This document shows, in pieces, positions 7,313 to 42,091 of a stretch of DNA of 43,477 bases. This stretch comes from Methanomassiliicoccaceae archaeon UBA537. Its GTDB lineage: Archaea; Thermoplasmatota; Thermoplasmata; Methanomassiliicoccales; Methanomethylophilaceae. Made by a program: the position numbers and the translations under genes. How positions within the stretch are numbered: position 1 is the stretch's first letter; every line of letters starts with the position of its first letter. The stretch spans positions 1 to 43,477 of the forward strand of contig DATC01000053.1 in assembly GCA_002504495.1 (NCBI GenBank). The letters are read 5' to 3'. Under the pieces are notes generated by a model. The model searched no databases and was not told the DNA's origin. It was given only the letters and a program-made list of their open reading frames with translations.

Positions 7313-8424
7313 CCGATATACCGCTCAACGAGCAGCTCCACGGCTTCATAGACGACCTGGAGCGCACCCTCGACCATCACGGGGAGCCGATCGACTGCGA
7401 TGCTGTGGTCCTCTGCGGCGTCGGCGGATCCGCGGTCAGCGGGGACGTCGCGGCCGATTGCTATCGCATGATCTCTCCCGTGCCCCTCTACACCGTCAAG
7501 AATCCCGACATCCCCAACTGGGCCGGATCGCGCACACTCGCCATAGTGTCCAGCTATTCCGGCAACACCGCGGAGACGCTCGAGATGTACAGGCAGGCCA
7601 AGGAGAAGGGCTGCACCGTCGTAGCTCTGACATCCGGAGGCAGGCTGAAGGATCTCGCCACCCTCAACGGGGACAGGGTCATGCTCCTGCCGCCCTCCAT
7701 GCAGCCGAGGCATGCGATCGGATACATGATCGGCTACACCCTGGCGATCATCCGCGATGCGGGAGCTTCCGATATATCGGAGGAGATACGCGCGTTCCTG
7801 CCGGACCTCCGCGAGTGGAGGGACAGGGAGGCCATTCCAGATGGATGCCTCGCCAGAAGGATCGCGGACTCGTTCAAGGGCAAGGTCCCCGTCGTGTGCT
7901 CCGGACCCAGCATGAGGTCCGTCGCGTTCAGATGGAAGACGCAGATAAACGAGAACTCCAAGCGCGTCGCATTCTTCGATGCCGTACCGGAGTTCGACTC
8001 CTGCGACCTGGCCGCATGGGCCTCCTCGCATCGCGACAACTACGTCCTCATCCTGCTGATGGGATGCGACGAAGGCAGGGATCTGATGGAGATGTTCGAC
8101 AAGGAGCTGGAATCGGCCGGATCGTCCCATCTGGCGGTGAGGCTCGGAGGTTCGTCGCCTCTCGAGGACCTCTTCCGTGCGATAATCCTGGGGGACTACG
8201 TCTCGATGTACATGGCCCTCTCCAGAGGAATAGATCCGGCGGAGGTCAGGCCGGTCATGCAGATGAAGGCCAAGCTCTCGCAGCGCTGGCCGATCGACGG
8301 TCCGACATCCCGGCGAGGGTCTCCTCGAACTCCTTCGCGAATCTCTTCGAGCGCTCCTCCGCCTTCTCAGGATCCGAGGATTCGGAGTATATCCTGTATT
8401 TCGGCTCCGTTCCGGAGGGCCTGA
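7309..8424 (+). CDS. bifunctional phosphoglucose/phosphomannose isomerase family protein (lacks catalytic His motif)
   Basis: ATG 7309 overlaps the upstream TGA (ATGA). Motifs GVGGSAVSG, SSYSGNTAET, TSGG, RWKTQINENSK and DPAEVRPV...K. Homology ends near 8290; first in-frame CGA is at 8314. Confidence 0.85.
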   Translation: MTDIPLNEQLHGFIDDLERTLDHHGEPIDCDAVVLCGVGGSAVSGDVAADCYRMISPVPLYTVKNPDIPNWAGSRTLAIVSSYSGNTAETLEMYRQAKEKGCTVVALTSGGRLKDLATLNGDRVMLLPPSMQPRHAIGYMIGYTLAIIRDAGASDISEEIRAFLPDLREWRDREAIPDGCLARRIADSFKGKVPVVCSGPSMRSVAFRWKTQINENSKRVAFFDAVPEFDSCDLAAWASSHRDNYVLILLMGCDEGRDLMEMFDKELESAGSSHLAVRLGGSSPLEDLFRAIILGDYVSMYMALSRGIDPAEVRPVMQMKAKLSQRWPIDGPTSRRGSPRTPSRISSSAPPPSQDPRIRSISCISAPFRRA

Positions 8425-21987: not shown

Positions 21988-23020
21988 GATCAGAGCCGAG
22001 CTCGCCAAAGCCGTGGATGCCATCTCGAATATAGATCCGTCCCAGATCAGGGCGGCCGCCGACGTCATCCGCGACGCGTTCAGAAGAGGCAACCAGGTCA
22101 TGTTCTGCGGGAACGGAGGCTCTTCGGCCGATGCGCAGCATATCGCGGCCGAATTCTCCGGAAGATTCAAGATGGAGAGGCCCGCGCTTCCCGGCGTGTG
22201 CCTGTCCAACATCGCCCCTGTGACCGCCATAGGCAACGACTACTCCTACGACCTGGTCTTCAAGAGGCAGGTCGAGGGTCTATGCAGAGAGGGGGACGTC
22301 CTCGTCGGAATGTCCACATCCGGCAATTCCAAGAACGTCGTCCTCGCCATGGAGGAGGCCAAGTCCAAGGGCGGGCTGACCGTGAGCTTCACCGGCGACG
22401 GAGGCGTGATGAGGGACATGGCCGACTGCGCCGTGATCATCCCCTCCCACGACACCGCCCACATCCAGGAGGGCTACCTCTGCGCCTGCCACATCATCGC
22501 AGGCATCGTCGAGAGGGAGCTCTTCGGCAGCCGAGCCGTCTTCATAGACCGCGACGACACCATCGTCGAGGACGTTCCGTACTGCGACGATCCGGACAAG
22601 CTCAGAATGTTCCCGGACGTTCCGGCCGCCATAGGCAGGCTGAACGCCGCAGGGTATCTGGTCATACTGATCACGAACCAGTCGGGCATCCATCGCGGAT
22701 ACTTCGACGAGGAGACCCTCGCCAGGATACACGGGCGCCTGAAGGACATGGTATCGGCCGGAGGCGGCCGCATAGACGACATCTTCTACTGTCCCCACAC
22801 TCCCGATGAGCATTGCTCGTGCAGGAAGCCGGAGACCGGGATGGGACTGGCGGCGATCGAGAAGCATCACATCGATCCCTCGAGGTCCTGGATGGTCGGC
22901 GATAAGGACAAGGACGTGGAGTTCGGCAGAAGGCTCGGCTGCAGGACCGTCAAGGTCGGAGACGGGGTATCCTTCTCCGATGCGGTCGACGAGATCCTCT
23001 CCGCCGACGGCCGTCTCTGA
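21977..23020 (+). CDS. gmhA: fused sedoheptulose-7-P isomerase (GmhA) and heptose-1,7-bisphosphate phosphatase (GmhB)
   Basis: GmhA part: CGNGGSSADAQH, AIGNDY, STSGNS, IQE. GmhB part: FIDRDDT, TNQSGI, CPH...CSCRKP, GDKDKD. CGA at the domain junction (22532). Confidence 0.9.
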   Translation: MTDEIRAELAKAVDAISNIDPSQIRAAADVIRDAFRRGNQVMFCGNGGSSADAQHIAAEFSGRFKMERPALPGVCLSNIAPVTAIGNDYSYDLVFKRQVEGLCREGDVLVGMSTSGNSKNVVLAMEEAKSKGGLTVSFTGDGGVMRDMADCAVIIPSHDTAHIQEGYLCACHIIAGIVERELFGSRAVFIDRDDTIVEDVPYCDDPDKLRMFPDVPAAIGRLNAAGYLVILITNQSGIHRGYFDEETLARIHGRLKDMVSAGGGRIDDIFYCPHTPDEHCSCRKPETGMGLAAIEKHHIDPSRSWMVGDKDKDVEFGRRLGCRTVKVGDGVSFSDAVDEILSADGRL

Positions 23021-27299: not shown

Positions 27300-27659
27300 A
27301 TGAGGAGCTGCAAGACTAACCCTCAGCTCATCGCCACTATCAGTGACCTGAAGGCGAAGACGAGGGAGACCGGCAGTGCCATCTGGCGAGATGTTGCGCT
27401 TCGGCTTGAGAAGCCTAGCAGGAACTGGGCCGAAGCGAACCTCAGCAAACTTGAGCTTTACGCGCAGGATGGAGAGACTATCCTCGTCCCCGGTAAGGTT
27501 CTCGCCGCAGGCACAATAAGCAAGAAGATCACCGTCGCCGCGTACGGATTCTCCGACGCAGCCGCCAAGGCCATCGTCGCCGCCGGCGGAAAGACCATGT
27601 CCCTCGAGGAGCTGGCCGAGGCCAACCCCAAGGGAACCGGTGTCAGGATCATGAGGTGA
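27300..27659 (+). CDS. rpl18e: 50S ribosomal protein L18e
   Basis: KTNP.L, IWRDVA..LEKP, VPGKVL and NPKG motifs; TTTATAA promoter at 27242; contains an internal CGA at 27387. Confidence 0.95.
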   Translation: MRSCKTNPQLIATISDLKAKTRETGSAIWRDVALRLEKPSRNWAEANLSKLELYAQDGETILVPGKVLAAGTISKKITVAAYGFSDAAAKAIVAAGGKTMSLEELAEANPKGTGVRIMR

Positions 27660-28962: not shown

Positions 28963-29505
28963 ATGTGCAATCCTCTAGCCGACATCTGCGACGGCGCCGT
29001 ACACGAGCTGGAGGCAATACTAGGTCGCGACAGATGCGGGGCGATCGTGTGCGGTCGTTCGATGCTACGCTTCAAGGATCCGATCGATGGAGAGTCTCCG
29101 TTGATCATGACCTTCCGCGTGATGGTGGTGCCTGTCATGGCGCGTCTCGGATATGTGCAGAGGGCATTCGATTCCACCGGTTTCGAAGAGTGCGTTGTAG
29201 CGGTCGTACCGATGAATCATCCGTTGAACGATGCGGAGGCGCAGGCGTGTTCGGCTCTCAAACGCTCGAATGTACGCAGAGGGGTCGCTACAGACGGATT
29301 CCTCTGGGTGCTGATGGATCGCGGGCCTTCCGGACCGAAAAGGCGCACTGTAGCCGATATCAGATCCTATTACATGGATGCCCTGATCCGCAGAAGATTC
29401 ATGCAGGCCGTAGAATCGGACGATCGGTACGCGGAGGAGTTCGTCAGGGCGTTCGGAAAGATCGATGGCACAGGAGATCGCGAAGGGACGCGACCTCCTC
29501 CGTGA
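28963..29505 (+). CDS. hypothetical protein, possibly a degenerate HsdR N-terminal (PD-(D/E)XK) fold
   Basis: L..A..Q....L......GVATDGFLW resembles the Q...Y...TNG..W pattern, but there is no E-x-K. Confidence 0.5.
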   Translation: MCNPLADICDGAVHELEAILGRDRCGAIVCGRSMLRFKDPIDGESPLIMTFRVMVVPVMARLGYVQRAFDSTGFEECVVAVVPMNHPLNDAEAQACSALKRSNVRRGVATDGFLWVLMDRGPSGPKRRTVADIRSYYMDALIRRRFMQAVESDDRYAEEFVRAFGKIDGTGDREGTRPPP

Positions 29506-33786: not shown

Positions 33787-35229
33787 ATGGAAAGCAGAAA
33801 GCTTGTAGCGGTCGTCGCGGTAGTCATAGTGCTCGCGGCTTCATTGTTCATCGTCTTCGCAGATCGGGACGATGGATCCGGCTTCTCGCCGAGCGGATAT
33901 CCGGCGCATCTCGCCGTGCTGGGGAATGCGGATCTCGATGATGCCATCACGGCATCGGATGCGGAGGTGATCAGGAAGGTCGTCGAGACGGGATACGACA
34001 ACTATTCCGAGGTCTACATGTGCGACGCCAATAACGACGGCGTCGTGGATCGCGAGGACGCGATCATGGTGGACAGGATGGTAGCGGCCCAGGCATCGGG
34101 CGACTGGAGCAAGGTCGGGATGATCCACTATATCGACGTGGACAAGCGCATCGCGTCCTATGATATGACCGGGAGCGACAAGGTGATAACGATCATCGCC
34201 CCGGTTCTCGATACCGTCCTCGCCATGGGCGGGAAGGATCTCGTGGTCGGATTCGACAACAGGATAACGACCGGAAAGTACCATGAGGAGTATGCATCCC
34301 TCTTCGATTTCTCGAAGATGATCGATGTCGGCAGCTGCAACGAGCCCGACACGGAATCCATCACCCGCGCTTCCGATATGTACGGGGGCGTGACCGTGGT
34401 ATGCGGAACCCGGGACTCGTACGGTCCGACCATGGAGTCCGTCTTCGCCGGAACCGATGTGCAGATCGTCCGCGTGGCGTCATGGGAGTACGGGGAGACC
34501 ATGTACGGCTTCATCACCCTCGCGTATCTTCTGAAATGCGTCGAAGGCGCGGAGATGTACGTCTCCTGGTACGATGGATGCATGGACGTCGTAGCCGACA
34601 TCGTCGCATCCACGCCCGATTCCGACCGTTCCGTCGGTGCGGCCGCGGCTTACGGCTATCTCGACGAGCTGTCCCTCCTGGGAACGTACACCGGAGAGCA
34701 TGCGGCGCTGATGTCCCTCCGCGTATTCGATTCCGCGGGATCGTATCTCGGGGGCGGCAGCGGAGGCCACGGCAACTCGATAGCCGACGAGGCCGTATCG
34801 GCGATGTACGCAGACCATTCCCTCAGGAATCTGGTCCTGATGGTGGGGACCCCGTTCCAGATCTCCGAGCAGGCCAAGGCGTCGTACATGGAGGGCGTCT
34901 ATGAAAAGTGGTGCGACAGGCTCGGGGCCGATGCGATGCCGGGATTGAACATATGCGTGTCCGGATACTCCTTCAGCAGCGGCGTCTCCGAGGTGCTCAA
35001 CCAGCTCATACTGTGCTATTGGATGTACAACGACGAGTTCCTGGCTCATTTCGGCTGCTCGACGCAGAAGGAGGCCCAGGACGTCCTCGCCGGCTACGTC
35101 GACGCGTACTGCGGTTGGATCGGGATATCCGACGCCTGGAGCTTCTACGGGGCCGACGGCACGCGCGGCATGAACCTCCTGTACTGCGGGGACGGGGATC
35201 CGCGCAACATCATGTACGGCGGCAGGTGA
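33787..35229 (+). CDS. Fe/cobalamin-type ABC transporter substrate-binding protein with N-terminal dockerin-like EF-hand pair
   Basis: Signal/TM, then GNADLDDAITASD...CDANNDGVVDRED and a TroA-like domain (EP..E); AT-rich promoter at 33722-33752. Confidence 0.8.
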   Translation: MESRKLVAVVAVVIVLAASLFIVFADRDDGSGFSPSGYPAHLAVLGNADLDDAITASDAEVIRKVVETGYDNYSEVYMCDANNDGVVDREDAIMVDRMVAAQASGDWSKVGMIHYIDVDKRIASYDMTGSDKVITIIAPVLDTVLAMGGKDLVVGFDNRITTGKYHEEYASLFDFSKMIDVGSCNEPDTESITRASDMYGGVTVVCGTRDSYGPTMESVFAGTDVQIVRVASWEYGETMYGFITLAYLLKCVEGAEMYVSWYDGCMDVVADIVASTPDSDRSVGAAAAYGYLDELSLLGTYTGEHAALMSLRVFDSAGSYLGGGSGGHGNSIADEAVSAMYADHSLRNLVLMVGTPFQISEQAKASYMEGVYEKWCDRLGADAMPGLNICVSGYSFSSGVSEVLNQLILCYWMYNDEFLAHFGCSTQKEAQDVLAGYVDAYCGWIGISDAWSFYGADGTRGMNLLYCGDGDPRNIMYGGR

Positions 35230-35232
35230 ACG

Positions 35233-36309
35233 ATGTACGAGTCGTGGGCGGAGAACGAGGATGATGCGGAGGGCGCCGTCGTACGCATCGGCGAGACCGC
35301 TTCGAGAAAGGCGGCCGTCGTTCTGGCGCTTCTCGTCGGAGGGGTGCTCCTCCTGTTCGGAGCGAGGCTCGCGATCGGAGACTACAGTGTCGGCGCGGCA
35401 GATGCCCTTGCCGCGCTGTGGAGGCATTTGACGGAGGGGCCCGACGGATCCATGCTGGACAACGTGGTGTGGAAACAGCGCCTTCCGAGGGCCTTCACGG
35501 CCGTGATCGCCGGCACGGGCCTCGCGGCGGCGGGTGCGGCGATGCAGAGCCTCATGAAGAATCCTCTAGCGGACCCGTACACCGCCGGCATCTCCTCCGG
35601 AGCGCTCTTCGGGGCGACCTTGTCAATGACCCTGGGGATCGGTCTGGCGGAGGGATATTTCGGGCGCGTCGCGAACGCCTTCGTATTCGCCATGGTGCCC
35701 GCCCTCGTCATCGCCGTCATATCGCGTTGGCGCAAGCCGTCTCCTGCGATGATGATCCTCGCCGGCATCGCGATCATGTACATCTTCAACGCGTTCCAGT
35801 CCTACATGATGCTGAAGGCCGATCCGAACTCGGCCTCCAGCGTGTACACCTGGAGCGTCGGCAGCATAGGGATGACGACATGGAGCACCATCCCCGTGAT
35901 GGCGGGCACCACTATCGCAGGATGCGCGATGCTCATGCTGATGTCCCGCGCCCTCAATGCGATGAACGCGGGGGACGACTACGCCAGGTCCCTGGGAATC
36001 CCGATAGACGGGGTCCGCATACTGTGCCTGGGACTCGTTTCGTTCGTCGCCGCGGGGATAGTCAGCTTCACCGGCGTTATAGGATTCGTGGGGCTGGTGT
36101 CGCCTCATATCGCGAGGATGCTCATCGGTCCGGACAACCGCCTGCTGATCCCCGCATCCGCGCTCATGGGTGCGCTCATGATGCTGCTGTGCGACATCGT
36201 CGGATTCCTCATCATGGGCTCCACCCTTCAGATAGGCGTGGTCACTGCCATGATAGGCGGTCCGCTGTTCATGGCCATCCTGCTCACCAGGAGGGGCGAG
36301 GTATGGTGA
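35233..36309 (+). CDS. FecCD/BtuC family ABC permease
   Basis: RLPR, NPLADPY..GISSGA, GD..A.SLG, GVIGFVGLV.PH and G.P.F motifs. Confidence 0.93.
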   Translation: MYESWAENEDDAEGAVVRIGETASRKAAVVLALLVGGVLLLFGARLAIGDYSVGAADALAALWRHLTEGPDGSMLDNVVWKQRLPRAFTAVIAGTGLAAAGAAMQSLMKNPLADPYTAGISSGALFGATLSMTLGIGLAEGYFGRVANAFVFAMVPALVIAVISRWRKPSPAMMILAGIAIMYIFNAFQSYMMLKADPNSASSVYTWSVGSIGMTTWSTIPVMAGTTIAGCAMLMLMSRALNAMNAGDDYARSLGIPIDGVRILCLGLVSFVAAGIVSFTGVIGFVGLVSPHIARMLIGPDNRLLIPASALMGALMMLLCDIVGFLIMGSTLQIGVVTAMIGGPLFMAILLTRRGEVW

Positions 36310-37076
36310 CGGGCATCTCGGCCGAAGGCCTCGGCATGGGATACGGAGACATCCTCGTATGCAGCGGGCTCGACCTGAGTCTGAGGGATCCGGGCCTCGT
36401 GTGCATCATAGGCCCCAACGGCGCCGGAAAGACCACGCTGATGCATGCCCTCAACAGGCTGGAGAAGCCTGCGGAGGGAAGGGTCGTGCTGGACGGGACG
36501 GACCTCTCGGACATGCGCAGGTCGGAGATAGCGCGCAGGGTCGCCTACGTCCCGAACGCTTCGGAGGAGGCGTTCTCGATGACAGTGCTGGACACGGTGC
36601 TGATGGGGCGCCATCCGCTGTCCTCGGAGTCATCGCGCCGGAAGGATCTCCGCATGGCCGCCCGGTGCCTGAGGATGCTCGGCATCCAGGATCTGGCGGG
36701 CAGGCGCTTCGATGCCCTCTCCTCCGGGCAGCGCCAGAGGGTCATGATAGCCCGCGGTCTGGCGCAGGAGGCCGAGATCATCCTTCTGGACGAGCCCACG
36801 TCGAATCTCGATCTGCGCCATCAGATGGAGGTCATGCGCCTCCTCCGCGACATCTCCAAGGCCGAAGGGCTGATCGCCGTCGTCGTCTGCCACGACATCA
36901 ACCTCGCCGCACGGTACGCCGACCGCATGGTCCTGCTGGCGGACGGCGCTGTGAAGGCCGACGGGACGCCGTGGGAGGTCGTGACGCCCGGGACGATCAT
37001 GGAGGCGTACGGCCTGGACTGCGACGTCACGGACGCCGGAGGGAGGCCGTATATAGTATACCGCGGGGAGCCGCGA
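36303..37076 (+). CDS. Fe-siderophore/cobalamin ABC transporter ATP-binding subunit
   Basis: GPNGAGKT, LSSGQRQR, LLDEPT and HD motifs. No standard stop: the frame continues into the 37146..37601 gene. End placed at the in-frame CGA 37074-37076. Confidence 0.88.
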
Positions 37077-37145
37077 TCGATCTCGCGAAGCGCACCTACC
37101 AAGTTTAAATGCGAGCTTAACTTACACGGTCGAGAGGCATGGATC

Positions 37146-37601
37146 TTGTTCGAGCTGCAGGTCGTTAGCAACACACCGATGACCGGGGAGGACGACATAT
37201 ACGTCGTCGCGGAGACATTTCTGATGCAGATCGGGTATCTCCCGAAAGGCTACGATCCGAAGACCGGCGTCATCAAGGTGAGGGACAGCGTGCCGTACAG
37301 GCTCTTCATGGACTACCTCGTCGCCCACCCCGCCAAGGCATGGACCGTGGAGGACCTGGCCTCCCTGCTGGGGACCACGAAGCCGACGATCTACCGCCAC
37401 ATAAACAAGCTGAAGTCCATGGACCTCCTGGAGGCCGTGGACGTGGATTCAGACGGGCAGACCCGCAAGGGGTACCGCATAAGGTACGGGGACCTCGTGA
37501 AGGCGTGGAGCTTCACCGAATCCAACGTGCAGATGGCCATGGAGAACTACCGCAAGTCCGTAGCGCATCTGCAGGAACTCATGAAAGAGAGGCGTGAATG
37601 A
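37146..37601 (+). CDS. winged-helix transcriptional regulator
   Basis: TTG 37146 after a TTTAAAT box (37104) and GAGG; WTVEDLASLLGTTKPTIYRHINKL HTH. Confidence 0.75.
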   Translation: MFELQVVSNTPMTGEDDIYVVAETFLMQIGYLPKGYDPKTGVIKVRDSVPYRLFMDYLVAHPAKAWTVEDLASLLGTTKPTIYRHINKLKSMDLLEAVDVDSDGQTRKGYRIRYGDLVKAWSFTESNVQMAMENYRKSVAHLQELMKERRE

Positions 37602-37852
37602 TGGCAGAGGACTATTCCATAAAGAAGGACGCGAGGTTCGTCGTCGTGTACAGGATCACGGATTCCAGGGACGGTTCCGTGGAGGGGACGTACAAGGGCA
37701 TGGCCGCCATGGGCGCCGAGACGGCGTTCGTCTTCGAGACGTCCGACGGCATCGTGTTCCTCAACGCGTCGTCGATCGTCTCGATGAAGCAGACCGCGGC
37801 CGCTCCGGAAGAGCCGAAGAAGCCCAAGGACGAGAGCGCTCTGTATGGCTGA
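37598..37852 (+). CDS. small beta-rich hypothetical protein (Sm/LSm-like) ending in LYG
   Basis: 84 aa, coupled to both neighbours; G-x-x-x-G and F-L-N-x-S-S-I pattern; flexible tail ending L-Y-G. Confidence 0.65.
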   Translation: MMAEDYSIKKDARFVVVYRITDSRDGSVEGTYKGMAAMGAETAFVFETSDGIVFLNASSIVSMKQTAAAPEEPKKPKDESALYG

Positions 37853-39380
37853 GCCTCTGGACCTGCTCTCCGATGAGCTCATCGAAGCGGTCAGGACCGG
37901 GAAGGTCGACGACCGCGATTCCTTCCAGAACCTCAAGCTCAAGCTCTGCAAGAAGCACGGTCTGTCCGGCGTCCCGCCGAACTCCGATGTTCTGGCCCGC
38001 ACCCCGGAGGACCTGAGGCCTCTCCTCCTTCCGTTCCTCATCAAGAAGCCCTCGCGCACCGTCAGCGGAGTGGCCGCGGTGGCGGTAATGACGTCGCCCC
38101 ACGACTGCCCCCACGGAAGATGCGCGTACTGTCCCGGCGGAGTCTCCAACGGATCGGCGCAGTCGTACACGGGCAAGGAGCCGGCGGCGAGGAGGGCCGC
38201 GCGCGACGCCTTCGATCCATGGCTGCAGGTGACCGACCGCGTCCGCCAGCTGGAGGAGATCGGCCACAGCGCAGGGAAGGTGGATCTCATAATCATGGGC
38301 GGGACCTTCACAAGCAGGGATCCGGAGTATCAGGAGTGGTTCGTCAAGCGCTGCTTCGACGCCCTCAACGGCCGCGACTCCGATACGCTGGAGGAGGCGC
38401 AGAGGATCAACGAGACGGCATCCCGCAGATGCGTCGGGATGACCGTGGAGACCCGTCCGGACGTGTTCACGGACGAGCAGATCGAGCGGGCCATGCGCCT
38501 GGGGGCCACCCGCGTGGAGCTCGGAGTGCAGATCCTCGACGACGATATCCTGGCCGGCATGGAGCGGGGGCACGGCACCGCGGAGGTCCGCGACTGCACC
38601 GCGAGATGCAGGAGCCACGGTCTGAAGGTCTGCTACCACATCATGCCCGGGCTGCCCGGGTCCGATCCGGACCATGACCTCGAGTGCTTCAGGAAGGTGT
38701 TCGACGATCCCGCGTACCGTCCGGATATGCTGAAGTTCTACACCCTGCTGGTCGTCGCAGGGACCCGCGTCCACGAGATGTGGGAGCGCGGAGAGTATGT
38801 TCCGTACGACGAGGCGACGGCGACGGAGCTCCTGGCGAGGATGAAGGCCATCGTCCCCGACTACGTCCGCATACAGAGGGTCCAGAGGGACATCCCCGCC
38901 ACGGAGATCGTCGCAGGGATAACCAAGAGCAACATCCGCCAACCGGTCCTTGAGCTGATGAGGATGCGCGGGACTCCGTGCAGATGCATCCGCTGCAGGG
39001 AGGTGGGGCGTTCGGAGGACATCGTGGACCTCGATGCGGCCGAGCTCTGCGACGAGGTCTACGAGGCCAGCGGGGGGACGGAGTACTTCATATCGTTCAC
39101 GAGCGGGGACCGCATAGTCGGATACGTCCGCCTCAGGCTGGATTCAGGCGACGCCGCCACCATACGCGAGCTGAAGGTGTTCGGGCATCCGGCTGCGATA
39201 GGGGAGGACGGCGACATACAGCACCGCGGATTCGGTCGGAGGCTCGTCTCCGAGGCCGAGCGCATAGCACGCGAGTCGGGCAGGAGGCGCATAAGGGTCA
39301 CCAGCGGCGTAGGTGTCCGCGGATACTACCGCTCCCTAGGATTCTCCGAGGATCTCCCGTACATGGCCAAGGATCTGCGA
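37845..39380 (+). CDS. elp3: tRNA uridine(34) acetyltransferase Elp3 (radical SAM + GNAT)
   Basis: CPHGRCAYCPGG, QSYTG.EP, MGGTF, ETRPD, QRDIP, CIRCREV, RELKV, QHRGFG, SGVGVR.YY and PYMAKDL. End placed at CGA 39378-39380; the standard-code ORF runs on to TAG 40085. Confidence 0.95.
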
Positions 39381-41609
39381 TCGCCCGTAGAACGGGTTGT
39401 CGTTCCAAGGGGTCCTTCTTCTTCTGAGCGAGCGCCCCATGGCCTCGTAGGCCTCGGCGGATTCCCTGGAGACCGACGGGGCTATCTCCTCCAGCGCGGA
39501 ATCGAAGTGCTTCTGGAGCACCCCGTTCGCGCCCCTGTCCTCGCGATAGGCGCAGAGCGCCGCCTCCCTGCAGAGCGCCGCGAGGTCCGCTCCGGTGTAC
39601 CCGTCGGTAGAGGCGGCAACGGAATCCAGGTCCACGCCGTTCAGCGGCATCCTCGACGTGTGTATCCTGAGGATCGAGCGTCTGGATTCCAGGTCGGGCA
39701 TGCCGACGAGGACCAGGCCGTCGAACCTTCCGGGTCTCAGAAGGGCCGGATCCACGGCGTCGGGACGGTTGGTCGCGCCTATGACGGTCACGCGGCGCGG
39801 ATCGCCCACGCCGTCCATCTCCGTGAGCAACTGGGCCACGATCCTCTCCGACCCCTCGGAGCCGCCGGATCCTCTGGCGGGGGCGATGGAGTCCAGCTCG
39901 TCGAAGAACACGATGCACGGGGACATCTGCTTGGCCTTGCGGAATATCCTCCGGACCGTCTTCTCGGATTCGCCGAACCATTTGCTGGCGATCTCCGGTC
40001 CGCTGACCGATATGAAGTTGCATCCCGATTCGTTGGCCACGGCCTTGGCGATCAGCGTCTTCCCGGTGCCCGGGGGGCCGTATAGGAGGATCCCCCTCCC
40101 CGGCTCGATGCCCAGCCTCTCGCAGGCGTCTTCTCCGTCGACGGACATCACGCATTCGTCTATGCGGCGTCTGACGTCGTCCAATCCGCCGATGTCGCTC
40201 CATGACACCTTGGGGATCTCGACCAGCACCTCCCTCATGCCGCTGGGCTCGACCTCCGAGAGCGCGGCGGAGAAGTCGTCCATGGACACGCGCAGGGATT
40301 CGAGCATCTCCGATGGGATGGCCTTGTCCAGGTCCATCTCCTCGATGCGCGTGCTGACGCAGTGCAGAGCGGCCTCCCTGCATAGAGCGGCCAGGTCCGC
40401 GCCCGCGAAGCCGTTGGTGACGGCCGCGAGCCTCTCCGCTGTGACATCGGCAGTCAGCGGCATGTCCCTCATGTGCACGGACAGGATCTGCGCCCTGCCG
40501 TCGATCCCGGGGATGCCGATCTCCATCTCCCTGTCGAATCTCCCGGGGCGTCTGAGGGCGGGATCTATCGACCCCTCGCGGTTGGTGGCTCCTATGACCA
40601 CGACGCCTCCTCTTCCTCCGAGGCCGTCCATCAGGGCAAGGAGCTGGGCGACCACGCGCCTCTCCACTTCTCCCGAAGCGTCCTCCCTGTCGGGGGCTAT
40701 CGAATCGATCTCGTCGAGGAATATGATGCTCGGGGCCTTATCCTCGGCCTTCCTGAAGATCTCCCTGAGGCGCTCCTCGCTCTGTCCGTAGTACTTGCCC
40801 ATTATCTCGGGGCCGCGGACGGAGAAGAGGGTCGCGCCCGATTCGTTGGCTATCGCCTCTGCAAGGAGCGTCTTCCCGGTGCCGGGGGGACCGTAGAGCA
40901 GGACACCCTTGGGTGCCTCGATGCCCAGTCTCTCGAACAGCTCGGGGTGCTTCAGAGGCAGTTCGATCATCTCGCGCATGCGTCCGAGCTCCTCGTCCAG
41001 TCCGCCGACGTCGTCGTATGTGATGCGGCGCCCTCCCTTCTTCTCGCCGCAGGCCTCCTGCTCTTCCGACGGTTGGACATCGGCGACGTCCTTCACTGAT
41101 ACGACGGTGTCCGGACGCACGATGACCGGTCCTTCGGGGACTGTGGAGGAGACGTAGAACGTGGAGCGGTTGCCTGTAAGGGCGATATTGGGTACTATGA
41201 TGTCTGTGCCGGCCACCAGCGGGCGGTTGAGCAGTCCTTTGAGGAACAGGCGTTCGATGTCGTCCTCGAATCTGATCCTCTTGCCGTCGGGTATGTTCGG
41301 TGCCAGGACGATCTTCTCGGCGGGAGGGGGCTCGCATCTGCTAACCTCCACGTTCTCGTCGACGCTGACGCCCGCGCCGGTGCGGGTGAGGCCGTCGATG
41401 AAGATAAGTCCGCGCCCCTCGTCCTCCGGGTCGCACTTGAAGACCTTGGCTACGACGGAGCGCTTCCCGGTTATCGATACGGTGTCGCCGAGCTCCGCAC
41501 CGAGTGCCCTGCGGGACGCGGAGTCCATTCTGGCGCGCCCGTATCCAGCTTCGTTCTGCGATTTCGCTCTCGCGACCTTGAGGGTGATCGAATCCGGCAT
41601 ATCGTGCAT
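39336..41609 (-). CDS. cdc48: CDC48/VAT family AAA+ ATPase
   Basis: N domain plus two AAA modules (GPPGTGKT twice, DEID/DELD, RPGRFD twice); start ATG 41609 or 41600; natural end PFYG followed by CGA at 39383-39381. Confidence 0.95.
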   Translation of the reverse strand: MHDMPDSITLKVARAKSQNEAGYGRARMDSASRRALGAELGDTVSITGKRSVVAKVFKCDPEDEGRGLIFIDGLTRTGAGVSVDENVEVSRCEPPPAEKIVLAPNIPDGKRIRFEDDIERLFLKGLLNRPLVAGTDIIVPNIALTGNRSTFYVSSTVPEGPVIVRPDTVVSVKDVADVQPSEEQEACGEKKGGRRITYDDVGGLDEELGRMREMIELPLKHPELFERLGIEAPKGVLLYGPPGTGKTLLAEAIANESGATLFSVRGPEIMGKYYGQSEERLREIFRKAEDKAPSIIFLDEIDSIAPDREDASGEVERRVVAQLLALMDGLGGRGGVVVIGATNREGSIDPALRRPGRFDREMEIGIPGIDGRAQILSVHMRDMPLTADVTAERLAAVTNGFAGADLAALCREAALHCVSTRIEEMDLDKAIPSEMLESLRVSMDDFSAALSEVEPSGMREVLVEIPKVSWSDIGGLDDVRRRIDECVMSVDGEDACERLGIEPGRGILLYGPPGTGKTLIAKAVANESGCNFISVSGPEIASKWFGESEKTVRRIFRKAKQMSPCIVFFDELDSIAPARGSGGSEGSERIVAQLLTEMDGVGDPRRVTVIGATNRPDAVDPALLRPGRFDGLVLVGMPDLESRRSILRIHTSRMPLNGVDLDSVAASTDGYTGADLAALCREAALCAYREDRGANGVLQKHFDSALEEIAPSVSRESAEAYEAMGRSLRRRRTPWNDNPFYGRSQILGHVREILGES

Positions 41610-41722
41610 GAATCGTCCGGGCGACGTAAAATGTTCGGAAAAAGAGGGTCGCGCGTCAGTCCCCCGTCTTATTCGGCACCCGCATCCGGATCTGGAGACG
41701 ATGCTCTGGTCGTCTTCTGCGG

Positions 41723-42091
41723 TCATTCGCCATCCTGGTCGGATTCCGATTCGAGAATAGCCACTATCCTCTGACAATACTGTTTCAGGAACGGGAGATC
41801 ATCTTTCATGGTGGACCATTGAAACTCCAGATCGACCTCTTCGTACTGGTGCGCCATGAAATCACGCATTTTGCATATCTCATGCCAGTCGATCTCCTTG
41901 AAGCGGGATGTGACATCATCAGAGAGTCTTTTGACCCTCTCGCCTATGAGTTCGATGGACTTCGCTGTGGATCTCTGATATGATTCGTCGCTCATCAGGT
42001 CCTCGATGTCATCACCGAAGCGCATGATATCGGATGCTACATCGTCGCAGTATCCGATGATGAGGTTCAGGCTTTTGATATCACGCCTCAT
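41723..42091 (-). CDS. HEPN/DUF86 RNase toxin (HepT-like)
   Basis: IGE...L, I.W..I..MRDFMAHQY (R-x4-H-x-Y). Confidence 0.88.
   Translation of the reverse strand: MRRDIKSLNLIIGYCDDVASDIMRFGDDIEDLMSDESYQRSTAKSIELIGERVKRLSDDVTSRFKEIDWHEICKMRDFMAHQYEEVDLEFQWSTMKDDLPFLKQYCQRIVAILESESDQDGE

Follow-up and report, generated by a model that had tools for sequence, protein, structure and literature searches.

Does a long open frame that joins a transporter ATPase to a regulator encode a single fusion protein, or two genes parted by a codon that is not among the standard stops? The question is raised by a 432-codon frame on contig DATC01000053.1 of Methanomassiliicoccaceae archaeon UBA537 (assembly GCA_002504495.1), of which positions 1 to 43,477 form the window analyzed here. 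An initial annotation of this DNA had explained the apparent fusion of an ATP-binding cassette (ABC) ATPase with a helix-turn-helix (HTH) domain as two genes separated by a CGA stop. Our analysis makes it highly probable that the frame holds two genes and that CGA serves as an ambiguous, competitive or context-dependent fourth stop codon in this Methanomethylophilaceae lineage. In several genomes, and on either strand, coding sequences end at in-frame CGAs located where orthologues have their stops. The ATPase-HTH case appears to be one local instance of a change in the use of CGA that extends through the lineage and is apparently undescribed. G000 denotes the genome of the window, and the other G numbers denote its relatives.

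The ATPase-HTH frame and its counterparts in relatives

By sequence and codon count, the reading of 432 codons extends from ATG 36303 to TGA 37599-37601, and the list of open reading frames (ORFs) shows the frame to be stop-free already from 35418. The 432-aa reading matches the Pfam families ABC_tran (residues 22-167) and HTH_20 (residues 337-377). Three in-frame CGAs, at 37074, 37086, and 37131, lie within a linker of 24 codons (37074-37145). No CGA was found among the 255 codons of the ATPase part (36303-37067), whose arginine codons are CGC (13), AGG (9), and CGG (3), or among the 151 codons of the HTH part (37146-37598), confirming the earlier remark that the flanking domains are free of this codon. 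The coordinates that had been given for the frame, the three CGAs, TTTAAAT, GAGG, and the TTG start were all exact. At the in-frame rate of CGA in the gene cores of this genome (1.19 per 1000), the probability of at least three CGAs in 24 codons is 3e-6, compared with 0.046 at the off-frame rate (33.9 per 1000). The codon-usage score per codon is 0.093 in the linker, as against 0.546 in the ATPase (up to 37073) and 0.721 in the HTH part. The low score and a CGA density at the off-frame level indicate that the linker is composed like non-coding DNA.

When the 432-aa reading was searched in 40 relatives (41 genomes in total), a match over residues 1-432 was obtained only in G000 itself. Among the 40 relatives there was neither an ATPase-HTH fusion nor any match spanning both halves. 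The HTH gene stands alone in all 22 relatives examined at the DNA level (67-86% identity), and all of 80 further related loci give matches that start with residue 1 or 2 of the protein read from TTG 37146. The orthologues are thus separate genes, which had been proposed as the check on the two-gene explanation and which bears that explanation out. The upstream regions of the HTH genes share a TATA-like block (in closer relatives GTTTAAAT...AGCTTAACTT), a purine-rich site, and a start column that reads ATG, TTG, or CTG, into which TTG 37146 of the window falls. GAGG or GGAG-like strings occupy the position equivalent to GAGG 37134-37137, and the start column is directly followed by a conserved N-terminus, MFELQVVSNTPM, whose codons vary at the third position. 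The description of the linker as intergenic DNA with its own promoter agrees with its non-coding score and with the conserved TATA block, GAGG, and start column, from which we infer that TTTAAAT acts as the promoter of the HTH gene.

Only one relative, G010, has the same ATPase-HTH adjacency, and its two genes are out of phase. Relative to G000 there is a 2-nt indel between the TATA box and the HTH start, and the ATPase frame of G010 crosses the promoter and meets a TGA where the HTH gene starts. The spacer upstream of the TATA block is not conserved and could not be aligned between the two genomes. Since the indel sets the genes in phase in G000 only, the 'fusion' of G000 is an accident of phase. 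Neither mark of a true fusion was found: the joined frame is not conserved in relatives, and the linker is not coding-like in composition or evolution.

We propose that translation of the ATPase (36303-37073) would terminate at CGA 37074 in the context CGA-UCG, and that the HTH gene would be expressed from TTG 37146, using a TATA box and a ribosome-binding site of its own in the 69-nt spacer. The frame stays open because the spacer holds no standard stop and the indel phases the genes. With three successive in-frame CGAs between 37074 and 37131, read-through into the HTH gene would be rare even if each of them leaks. The NCBIfam profiles on the ATPase finish at residues 245-253, and in the ATPase orthologue of G010 the first in-frame CGA likewise lies 11 codons past a common GRPY motif.

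CGA at coding ends in the genome and among its relatives

The use of CGA across G000 was examined on a crude, self-trained set of ORFs of at least 150 aa, collected without a gene finder (n = 1004, of which 898 are free of N). An in-frame CGA in the second half is carried by 273 of the 898 long ORFs. In these 273, the mean codon score fell from 0.484 in the 40 codons before the first late CGA to -0.126 in the 40 codons after it, and no such drop was seen at seven control codons. The tail beyond the first late CGA has a median length of 17 codons, and the longest tails reach 303. Over all 61 sense codons, the score change was -0.627 for CGA and -0.022 on average for the other 60 (sd 0.023; z = -26 for CGA), with TGT second lowest at -0.090. 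The coding signal thus ends at this codon and at no other sense codon. Counted by ORF decile, the distribution of in-frame CGA is U-shaped (303, 143, 63, 52, 22, 25, 40, 66, 85, and 360). In gene cores CGA occurs at 1.19 per 1000 in frame vs 21 and 65 per 1000 in the other two frames, so the effect is frame-specific.

When each ORF was cut at its maximal cumulative score, 153 ended at the first late CGA, 55 with CGA ran on, and 549 ran to a standard stop (TGA 499, TAA 26, TAG 24); the unassigned class comprised 85 ORFs with CGA and 56 without. About a quarter of the genes are predicted to end at CGA, where relatives have TGA, TAA, or TAG. Coding signal on both sides was found at 57 of 1159 in-frame CGAs, mostly in gene pairs or junk frames. 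By a stricter count, 17 ORFs of G000 consist of two good coding segments parted by CGA alone, the ATPase-HTH frame among them. Of six cases with abutting segments, two (on contigs C65 and C111) are real gene pairs, and the other four resemble junk frames. Other pseudo-fusions join a FecCD permease to an ATPase on C28 and a kinase-like gene to a hydrogenase maturation protease on C65.

The neighborhood of the terminator-like CGAs was analyzed in 123 cases with tails of at least 8 codons. The next base is T in 59% of them vs 28% of all genomic CGA, and the contexts include CGATC (40/123), CGATG (26), and CGATCG (23/123), the commonest hexamer. TGA stops favor the same neighbor, TGATC being their commonest context (72 cases). 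At the conserved sense or read-through CGAs described below, the next base is C (aRF1) or G (L18e and GmhA|GmhB), though three sites are too few for a rule.

Projection of orthologue ends provides further evidence. ORFs of G000 were compared with six-frame ORFs of samples from G008, G015, and G013, which rarely show the pattern; 160 queries had a hit with at least 45% identity, and 151 were kept after dropping alignments that stopped more than 15 residues before the subject end. For 26 of 36 ORFs with a late CGA, the orthologue C-terminus projected no more than 5 codons from the first such CGA, and for 11 of the 36 it fell exactly onto it. For ORFs without CGA, the orthologue end coincided exactly with the ORF end in 80 of 115. 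Seven far outliers (+27 to +417) and two negative ones (-18 and -9) were traced to 5' ORF extensions, in-frame gene pairs, and junk frames, where 'junk' (a frame conserved by a real gene on another frame) is a judgement from composition.

Individual genes of the window agree with this picture: 11 of its approximately 47 coding segments end at CGA. The convergent genes for Elp3 (forward strand) and the AAA ATPase Cdc48 (reverse strand) end in one palindrome, CGATCG at 39378-39383, which supplies a CGA on each strand. The TIGR01211 profile (2-522 of 522) ends at Elp3 residue 511, the codon just before CGA, and in the standard code the Elp3 ORF would go 234 codons further, antisense through Cdc48. 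For Cdc48, the orthologue end projects exactly onto the CGA, and the TIGR01243 profile ends at residue 786 of 798. In the orthologue test, at the end of the Elp3 profile, and in Cdc48, the codon therefore sits where orthologues have their stops. The role of CGA as a separator, which had been suggested for the ATPase-HTH frame alone, is in this way extended to coding ends throughout the genome and to two further genes of the window. The true start of Cdc48 may lie downstream of 41777. Eight more CGA-ended segments of the window lie at 8294-8316, 16743, 18020, 25765, 29464-29491, and 31845, and include two convergent pairs (8314 on the forward strand with 8296 on the reverse strand, and 29491 forward with 29464 reverse).

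The same pipeline was run on samples of 60-200 kb, rather than whole genomes, from relatives. The classes of heavy and light users were set by the feature itself, and as the genomes are related, the counts describe the pattern and are no independent tests. Three relatives were heavy users: G010 (27 of 90 ORFs; score 0.341 before CGA and -0.189 after), G009 (13 of 55; 0.497 and -0.518), and G058 (18 of 69; 0.483 and -0.271). The light users were G008 (4/132 ORFs), G015 (4/152), G013 (3/39), G046 (2/60), and G070 (2/76). Within the genus, gene-core CGA ranges from 0 to 1.2 per 1000, with off-frame rates of ~31-36 per 1000 in six samples. CGA is also avoided in four other genera of the family (0.22-0.75 per 1000), without clear use as a terminator. 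In G030, which belongs to another family, CGA behaves like any rare codon (1.6 per 1000), with an even spread along ORFs and no drop in score. Among real genes in 660 kb of five light users, sense CGAs were confined to L18e (2), the release factor aRF1 (1), and the GmhA|GmhB junction (1). In these samples CGA is nearly, though not wholly, absent from conserved sense positions, and the exceptions (L18e, aRF1, and GmhA|GmhB) are themselves conserved. The aRF1 gene of G048 ends ...LLRYRPN-CGA, and its ORF in the standard code reaches 655 codons, so that even the gene for the release factor can end at CGA.

Sense CGA, tRNA-Arg(UCG), and the release factor

Several observations weigh against CGA as a stop codon, or against details of that reading. 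First, the cognate tRNA has not been lost: a tRNA-Arg(UCG) was found in G000 with ARAGORN and in 30 of 30 loci of the genus. Second, CGA encodes an Arg of ribosomal protein L18e in 30/30 genomes of the genus, 20/20 of other genera, and 10/10 of other families, i.e., in 60/60 genomes of the order. Third, aRF1 itself carries an in-frame CGA at a universally conserved Arg, NIKS+20, in 51 of 53 genus genomes. Fourth, a comparison by eye found no aRF1 substitution that separates heavy from light users of CGA ends. In addition, the ORF set is crude, self-trained, and includes some junk ORFs, and homologues of the ATPase have variable C-terminal tails of 10-40 aa, so homology alone cannot fix the ATPase end at 37074 rather than at 37086. 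Since CGA is a conserved Arg codon in L18e and aRF1, it cannot be a dedicated stop. The wording 'CGA stop' of the initial annotation holds insofar as the codon separates genes; it does not hold in the sense of a dedicated stop, because a few conserved sites use the codon for Arg and the cognate tRNA is kept, which argues for context-dependent or competitive termination. One codon would be both terminator and sense codon while its tRNA is present, as is expected of an ambiguous codon.

In the tRNA-Arg(UCG) of the genus, the 31:39 pair is mismatched throughout (A.A, C.A, or U.C), leaving four pairs in the anticodon stem, and the other pairs of the stem co-vary. Such compensatory changes point to a working tRNA. 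The presence of the L18e CGA in other families also implies that this site is older than the purge of CGA, and its conservation suggests that CGA-G is still translated. We had considered the L18e CGA as a lineage-specific regulatory site, which was ruled out by its occurrence in all 60 genomes of the order, including normal users of CGA. The Asp codon beside it varies (GAC or GAT) while the CGA stays fixed.

The two genus genomes that lack the aRF1 CGA at NIKS+20 are G071, with a CGA at NIKS-47 instead, and G074. In a comparison of 31 sequences, CGA was absent from all other Arg columns of the N-domain, and in conserved columns with four- or six-fold degeneracy the majority codon has a median share of only 0.61. 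In 20 genomes of 18 other genera, the NIKS+20 site is occupied by other Arg codons (CGA once). CGA nevertheless occurs elsewhere in the aRF1 N-domain of 15 of these 20, where ~0.03-0.1 would be expected per 150 codons; in 7 of the 20 it stands at position -33. The motifs GT-, NIKS, and YxCxxxF are ordinary in an alignment with solved aRF1 and eRF1. G001 and G012 read NIRS instead of NIKS. G000 was left out of the GT- loop region, which is covered by an 81-base run of N in its aRF1 gene (C30). A duplicated or specialized release factor was ruled out, as one aRF1-class match and one weaker Pelota-like match were found per genome in the 11 genomes searched, G009 giving partial hits only.

A third conserved in-frame CGA joins the genes for GmhA, a sugar isomerase, and GmhB, a heptose phosphatase, which share one frame with a single CGA between them. 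Of 28 genus loci, 23 have CGA at the junction and 5 have TAG, and in five further genomes GmhA and GmhB are separate genes with TAA. The junction looks like a site of programmed read-through that would yield one or two products. TAG is a readable stop in members of this order that encode PylS, and PylS is encoded in G000. On C111, one CGA (CGA-C) is all that lies between a NifH-like gene and the NifD-like gene after it, which shows no evident start; this pair may be another read-through junction.

We infer that the single aRF1 reads CGA, best when the next base is U, in competition with tRNA-Arg(UCG). CGA would have been purged from ordinary sense positions, with tRNA-Arg(UCG) still reading it at a few conserved sites. 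We speculate that the CGA in aRF1's own gene could exert negative feedback on the release factor. A more specific scenario, which we hold tentatively and rate a little short of even, is that a CGA of dual meaning has been caught in the middle of a sense-to-stop capture. The codon would have been purged family-wide; one genus, and heavily one subclade of it, would use CGA-U as a terminator through aRF1; and tRNA-Arg(UCG) would read CGA-C and CGA-G at fixed sites, including aRF1, in a loop resembling that of bacterial prfB, and GmhA|GmhB, where CGA and TAG would be interchangeable.

Alternative explanations, precedents, and the surrounding genes

The alternative that survives best, although we consider it unlikely, is that CGA is a starved or near-unassigned codon that the release factor does not read. 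Ribosomes would then stall and be rescued, or read through slowly, with short junk tails being tolerated; the ATPase and HTH genes would still be two, with no true termination at 37074. This would suit the single-copy tRNA-Arg(UCG) with its constant 31:39 mismatch, the unchanged motifs of aRF1, and a median tail of just 17 codons, and a precedent exists in the unassigned CGG of Mycoplasma capricolum, a case cited in the available part of PMC8629427. However, tails extend to 303 codons and 17 in-frame pseudo-fusions occur, and approximately a quarter of the genes, including Cdc48, Elp3, and the aRF1 of G048, would give stalled or extended products. A starved codon also fits poorly with the preference for U after CGA, which parallels that of TGA stops, and with the exchange of CGA for TAG at one conserved site. 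Furthermore, the abundant protein L18e is made through a CGA, so its decoding is not generally blocked.

A genuine 432-aa fusion of ABC ATPase and regulator, with CGA read as Arg throughout, is very improbable. The frame is indeed open, a tRNA for CGA exists, and CGA can be read as Arg elsewhere, but the fusion is absent from the 40 relatives, the two genes of G010 are out of phase, and the linker, non-coding by codon score and with three CGAs, holds the conserved promoter and the start of a gene that stands alone everywhere else.

Least probable of all is an artefact, either an assembly or base-calling error (e.g., TGATC read as CGATC) or editing that turns CGA into UGA in the mRNA. Although G000 is a metagenome-assembled genome (81% complete, 150 contigs) and CGATC is the commonest terminator-like context, the same pattern occurs in at least three other separate genomes, TGATC is found 2683 times in G000 (which rules out a systematic TGATC-to-CGATC error) and is the commonest context of TGA stops, the effect follows the reading frame on both strands, and CGA and CGAT are so abundant out of frame within genes (3593 and 11034 CGA in frames 2 and 3) that a process acting on the sequence motif would damage coding sequence.

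The reading of CGA as an ambiguous stop has partial parallels in known systems. Sense codons have become stops in small genomes, namely AGA/AGG in vertebrate mitochondria and TCA in Scenedesmus mitochondria. Like these cases and that of Mycoplasma, a sense codon has left coding positions and turns up at gene ends, and, as in Mycoplasma, it is an Arg codon of the CGN box. Unlike them, the change would affect a cellular archaeal genome of 1.6-2.4 Mb with 54-64% G+C, in which the cognate tRNA and the Arg meaning at a few conserved sites are kept. Closer in phylogeny, the available sections of a preprint by Melnykov (bioRxiv 10.64898/2026.04.02.715157) describe two archaeal assemblies from hydrothermal vents that lack CGA in known domains, where CGA is possibly a stop, and that have no tRNA(UCG) and a CGG reassigned to Trp. 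These sections state that the method itself cannot infer stops, report no test of gene ends, and contain no occurrence of Methanomassiliicoccales. The lineage studied here differs from the vent archaea in keeping CGG as a sense codon and in having tRNA(UCG), and its gene ends were tested.

Release at CGA by a factor of the eRF1/aRF1 family has been described in yeast. According to the accessible portion of Wada and Ito (PMC7379694), eRF1/eRF3 misdecodes CGA in competition with tRNA-Arg, and stop decoding can be detected, at a low level, where a gene ends in one CGA. What in yeast is a low-level error or rescue would here be the normal way in which about one gene in four ends. Codons with both a stop and a sense meaning are reportedly found in ciliate codes without a dedicated stop, and amber is said to be such a codon in methanogens with pyrrolysine. 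As in those systems, one codon is stop and sense with its cognate tRNA present; the direction differs, since there a standard stop gained a sense meaning and here a sense codon would have gained a stop meaning. Bacterial RF2 (prfB) is autoregulated through an in-frame UGA. Like prfB, the aRF1 gene has a conserved copy of the codon whose termination its product would catalyze (in the 51 of 53 genus genomes), but no frameshift would be needed, as the feedback could act by competition with tRNA-Arg(UCG).

Our literature search retrieved no report of CGA as a stop in Methanomassiliicoccales, nor of an in-frame CGA in aRF1. The main text of the Codetta screen, whose per-genome inferences are in its supplements, contains none of the terms 'sense to stop', 'Thermoplasmat', and 'Methanomassilii'. 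If the reading is correct, a sense-to-stop change would for the first time be well supported in a cellular rather than an organellar genome. The lineage would also offer a rare view of codon capture underway, with family-wide avoidance, genus-wide rare use, and a subclade in which 20-30% of genes end at CGA. The conserved CGA of aRF1 would make it testable how a cell survives the ambiguous stage of codon reassignment. Gene callers that apply the standard code would misplace C-termini, append long spurious tails, and create false fusions in approximately a quarter of the genes in these host-associated (gut) methanogens. Code-inference methods based on conserved domains would be blind to such a new stop, a limit that authors of these methods state in the available parts of their papers.

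The coordinates of the features discussed are collected in Table 1.

Table 1 Features of the window around the ATPase-HTH frame and at other sites of CGA use.
Feature	Position	Strand	Evidence or remark
In-frame CGA at the GmhA|GmhB junction, candidate programmed read-through site	22532..22534	+	No start codon behind the CGA in G000
Sense CGA in ribosomal protein L18e (Arg of IW-R-D), context CGA-G	27387..27389	+	Homology
FecCD-type ABC permease gene	35233..36309	+	Pfam FecCD, E 7.8e-83; ORF list
FepC/FecE-type ABC ATPase gene, 257 sense codons, proposed end at CGA 37074-37076	36303..37076	+	Pfam, NCBIfam, codon score
In-frame CGA, proposed ATPase terminator, context CGATCG	37074..37076	+	Sequence; context statistics
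Putative intergenic spacer, 69 nt, in frame by accident, without standard stop, with 2 further CGAs (37086, 37131)	37077..37145	+	
TTTAAAT, candidate TATA box (archaeal type) of the HTH gene; the conserved block AGCTTAACTT comes next	37104..37110	+	Alignment of 10 genomes; 23 upstream regions
GAGG, Shine-Dalgarno-like, 8 nt upstream of TTG 37146	37134..37137	+	Sequence; relatives
Winged-helix regulator gene (HTH_20 / ArsR-MarR-like), 151 aa, TTG start, TGA end	37146..37601	+	Pfam HTH_20; homology
Conserved 84-aa ORF, ATGA overlap with the end of the HTH gene	37598..37852	+	ORF list; gene order same in G010
Elp3 gene, ended by CGA 39378-39380	37845..39380	+	First in-frame CGA is codon 512 of 746, after ...YMAKDL
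Cdc48/VAT AAA ATPase gene with C-terminus ...NPFYG before a terminal CGA (complement of 39381-39383)	39381..41777	-	

The 84-aa ORF had no family match in profile searches, a scan of 36900-37350 with Rfam gave no match up to E = 1, and a look-up of public sequencing runs for 36300-41800 gave none. Upstream of the ATPase, the TGA of the permease gene (36307-36309) overlaps the ATPase start in the string ATGGTGA, and a gene for a binding protein also lies upstream. This binding protein, part of an operon at 33787-37076, has a weak dockerin-like N-terminal match below the Pfam cut-off. The FepC-type ATPase of the window has 43 matches in the 1.6-Mb genome G000, suggesting very many ABC importers of the iron or corrinoid type.

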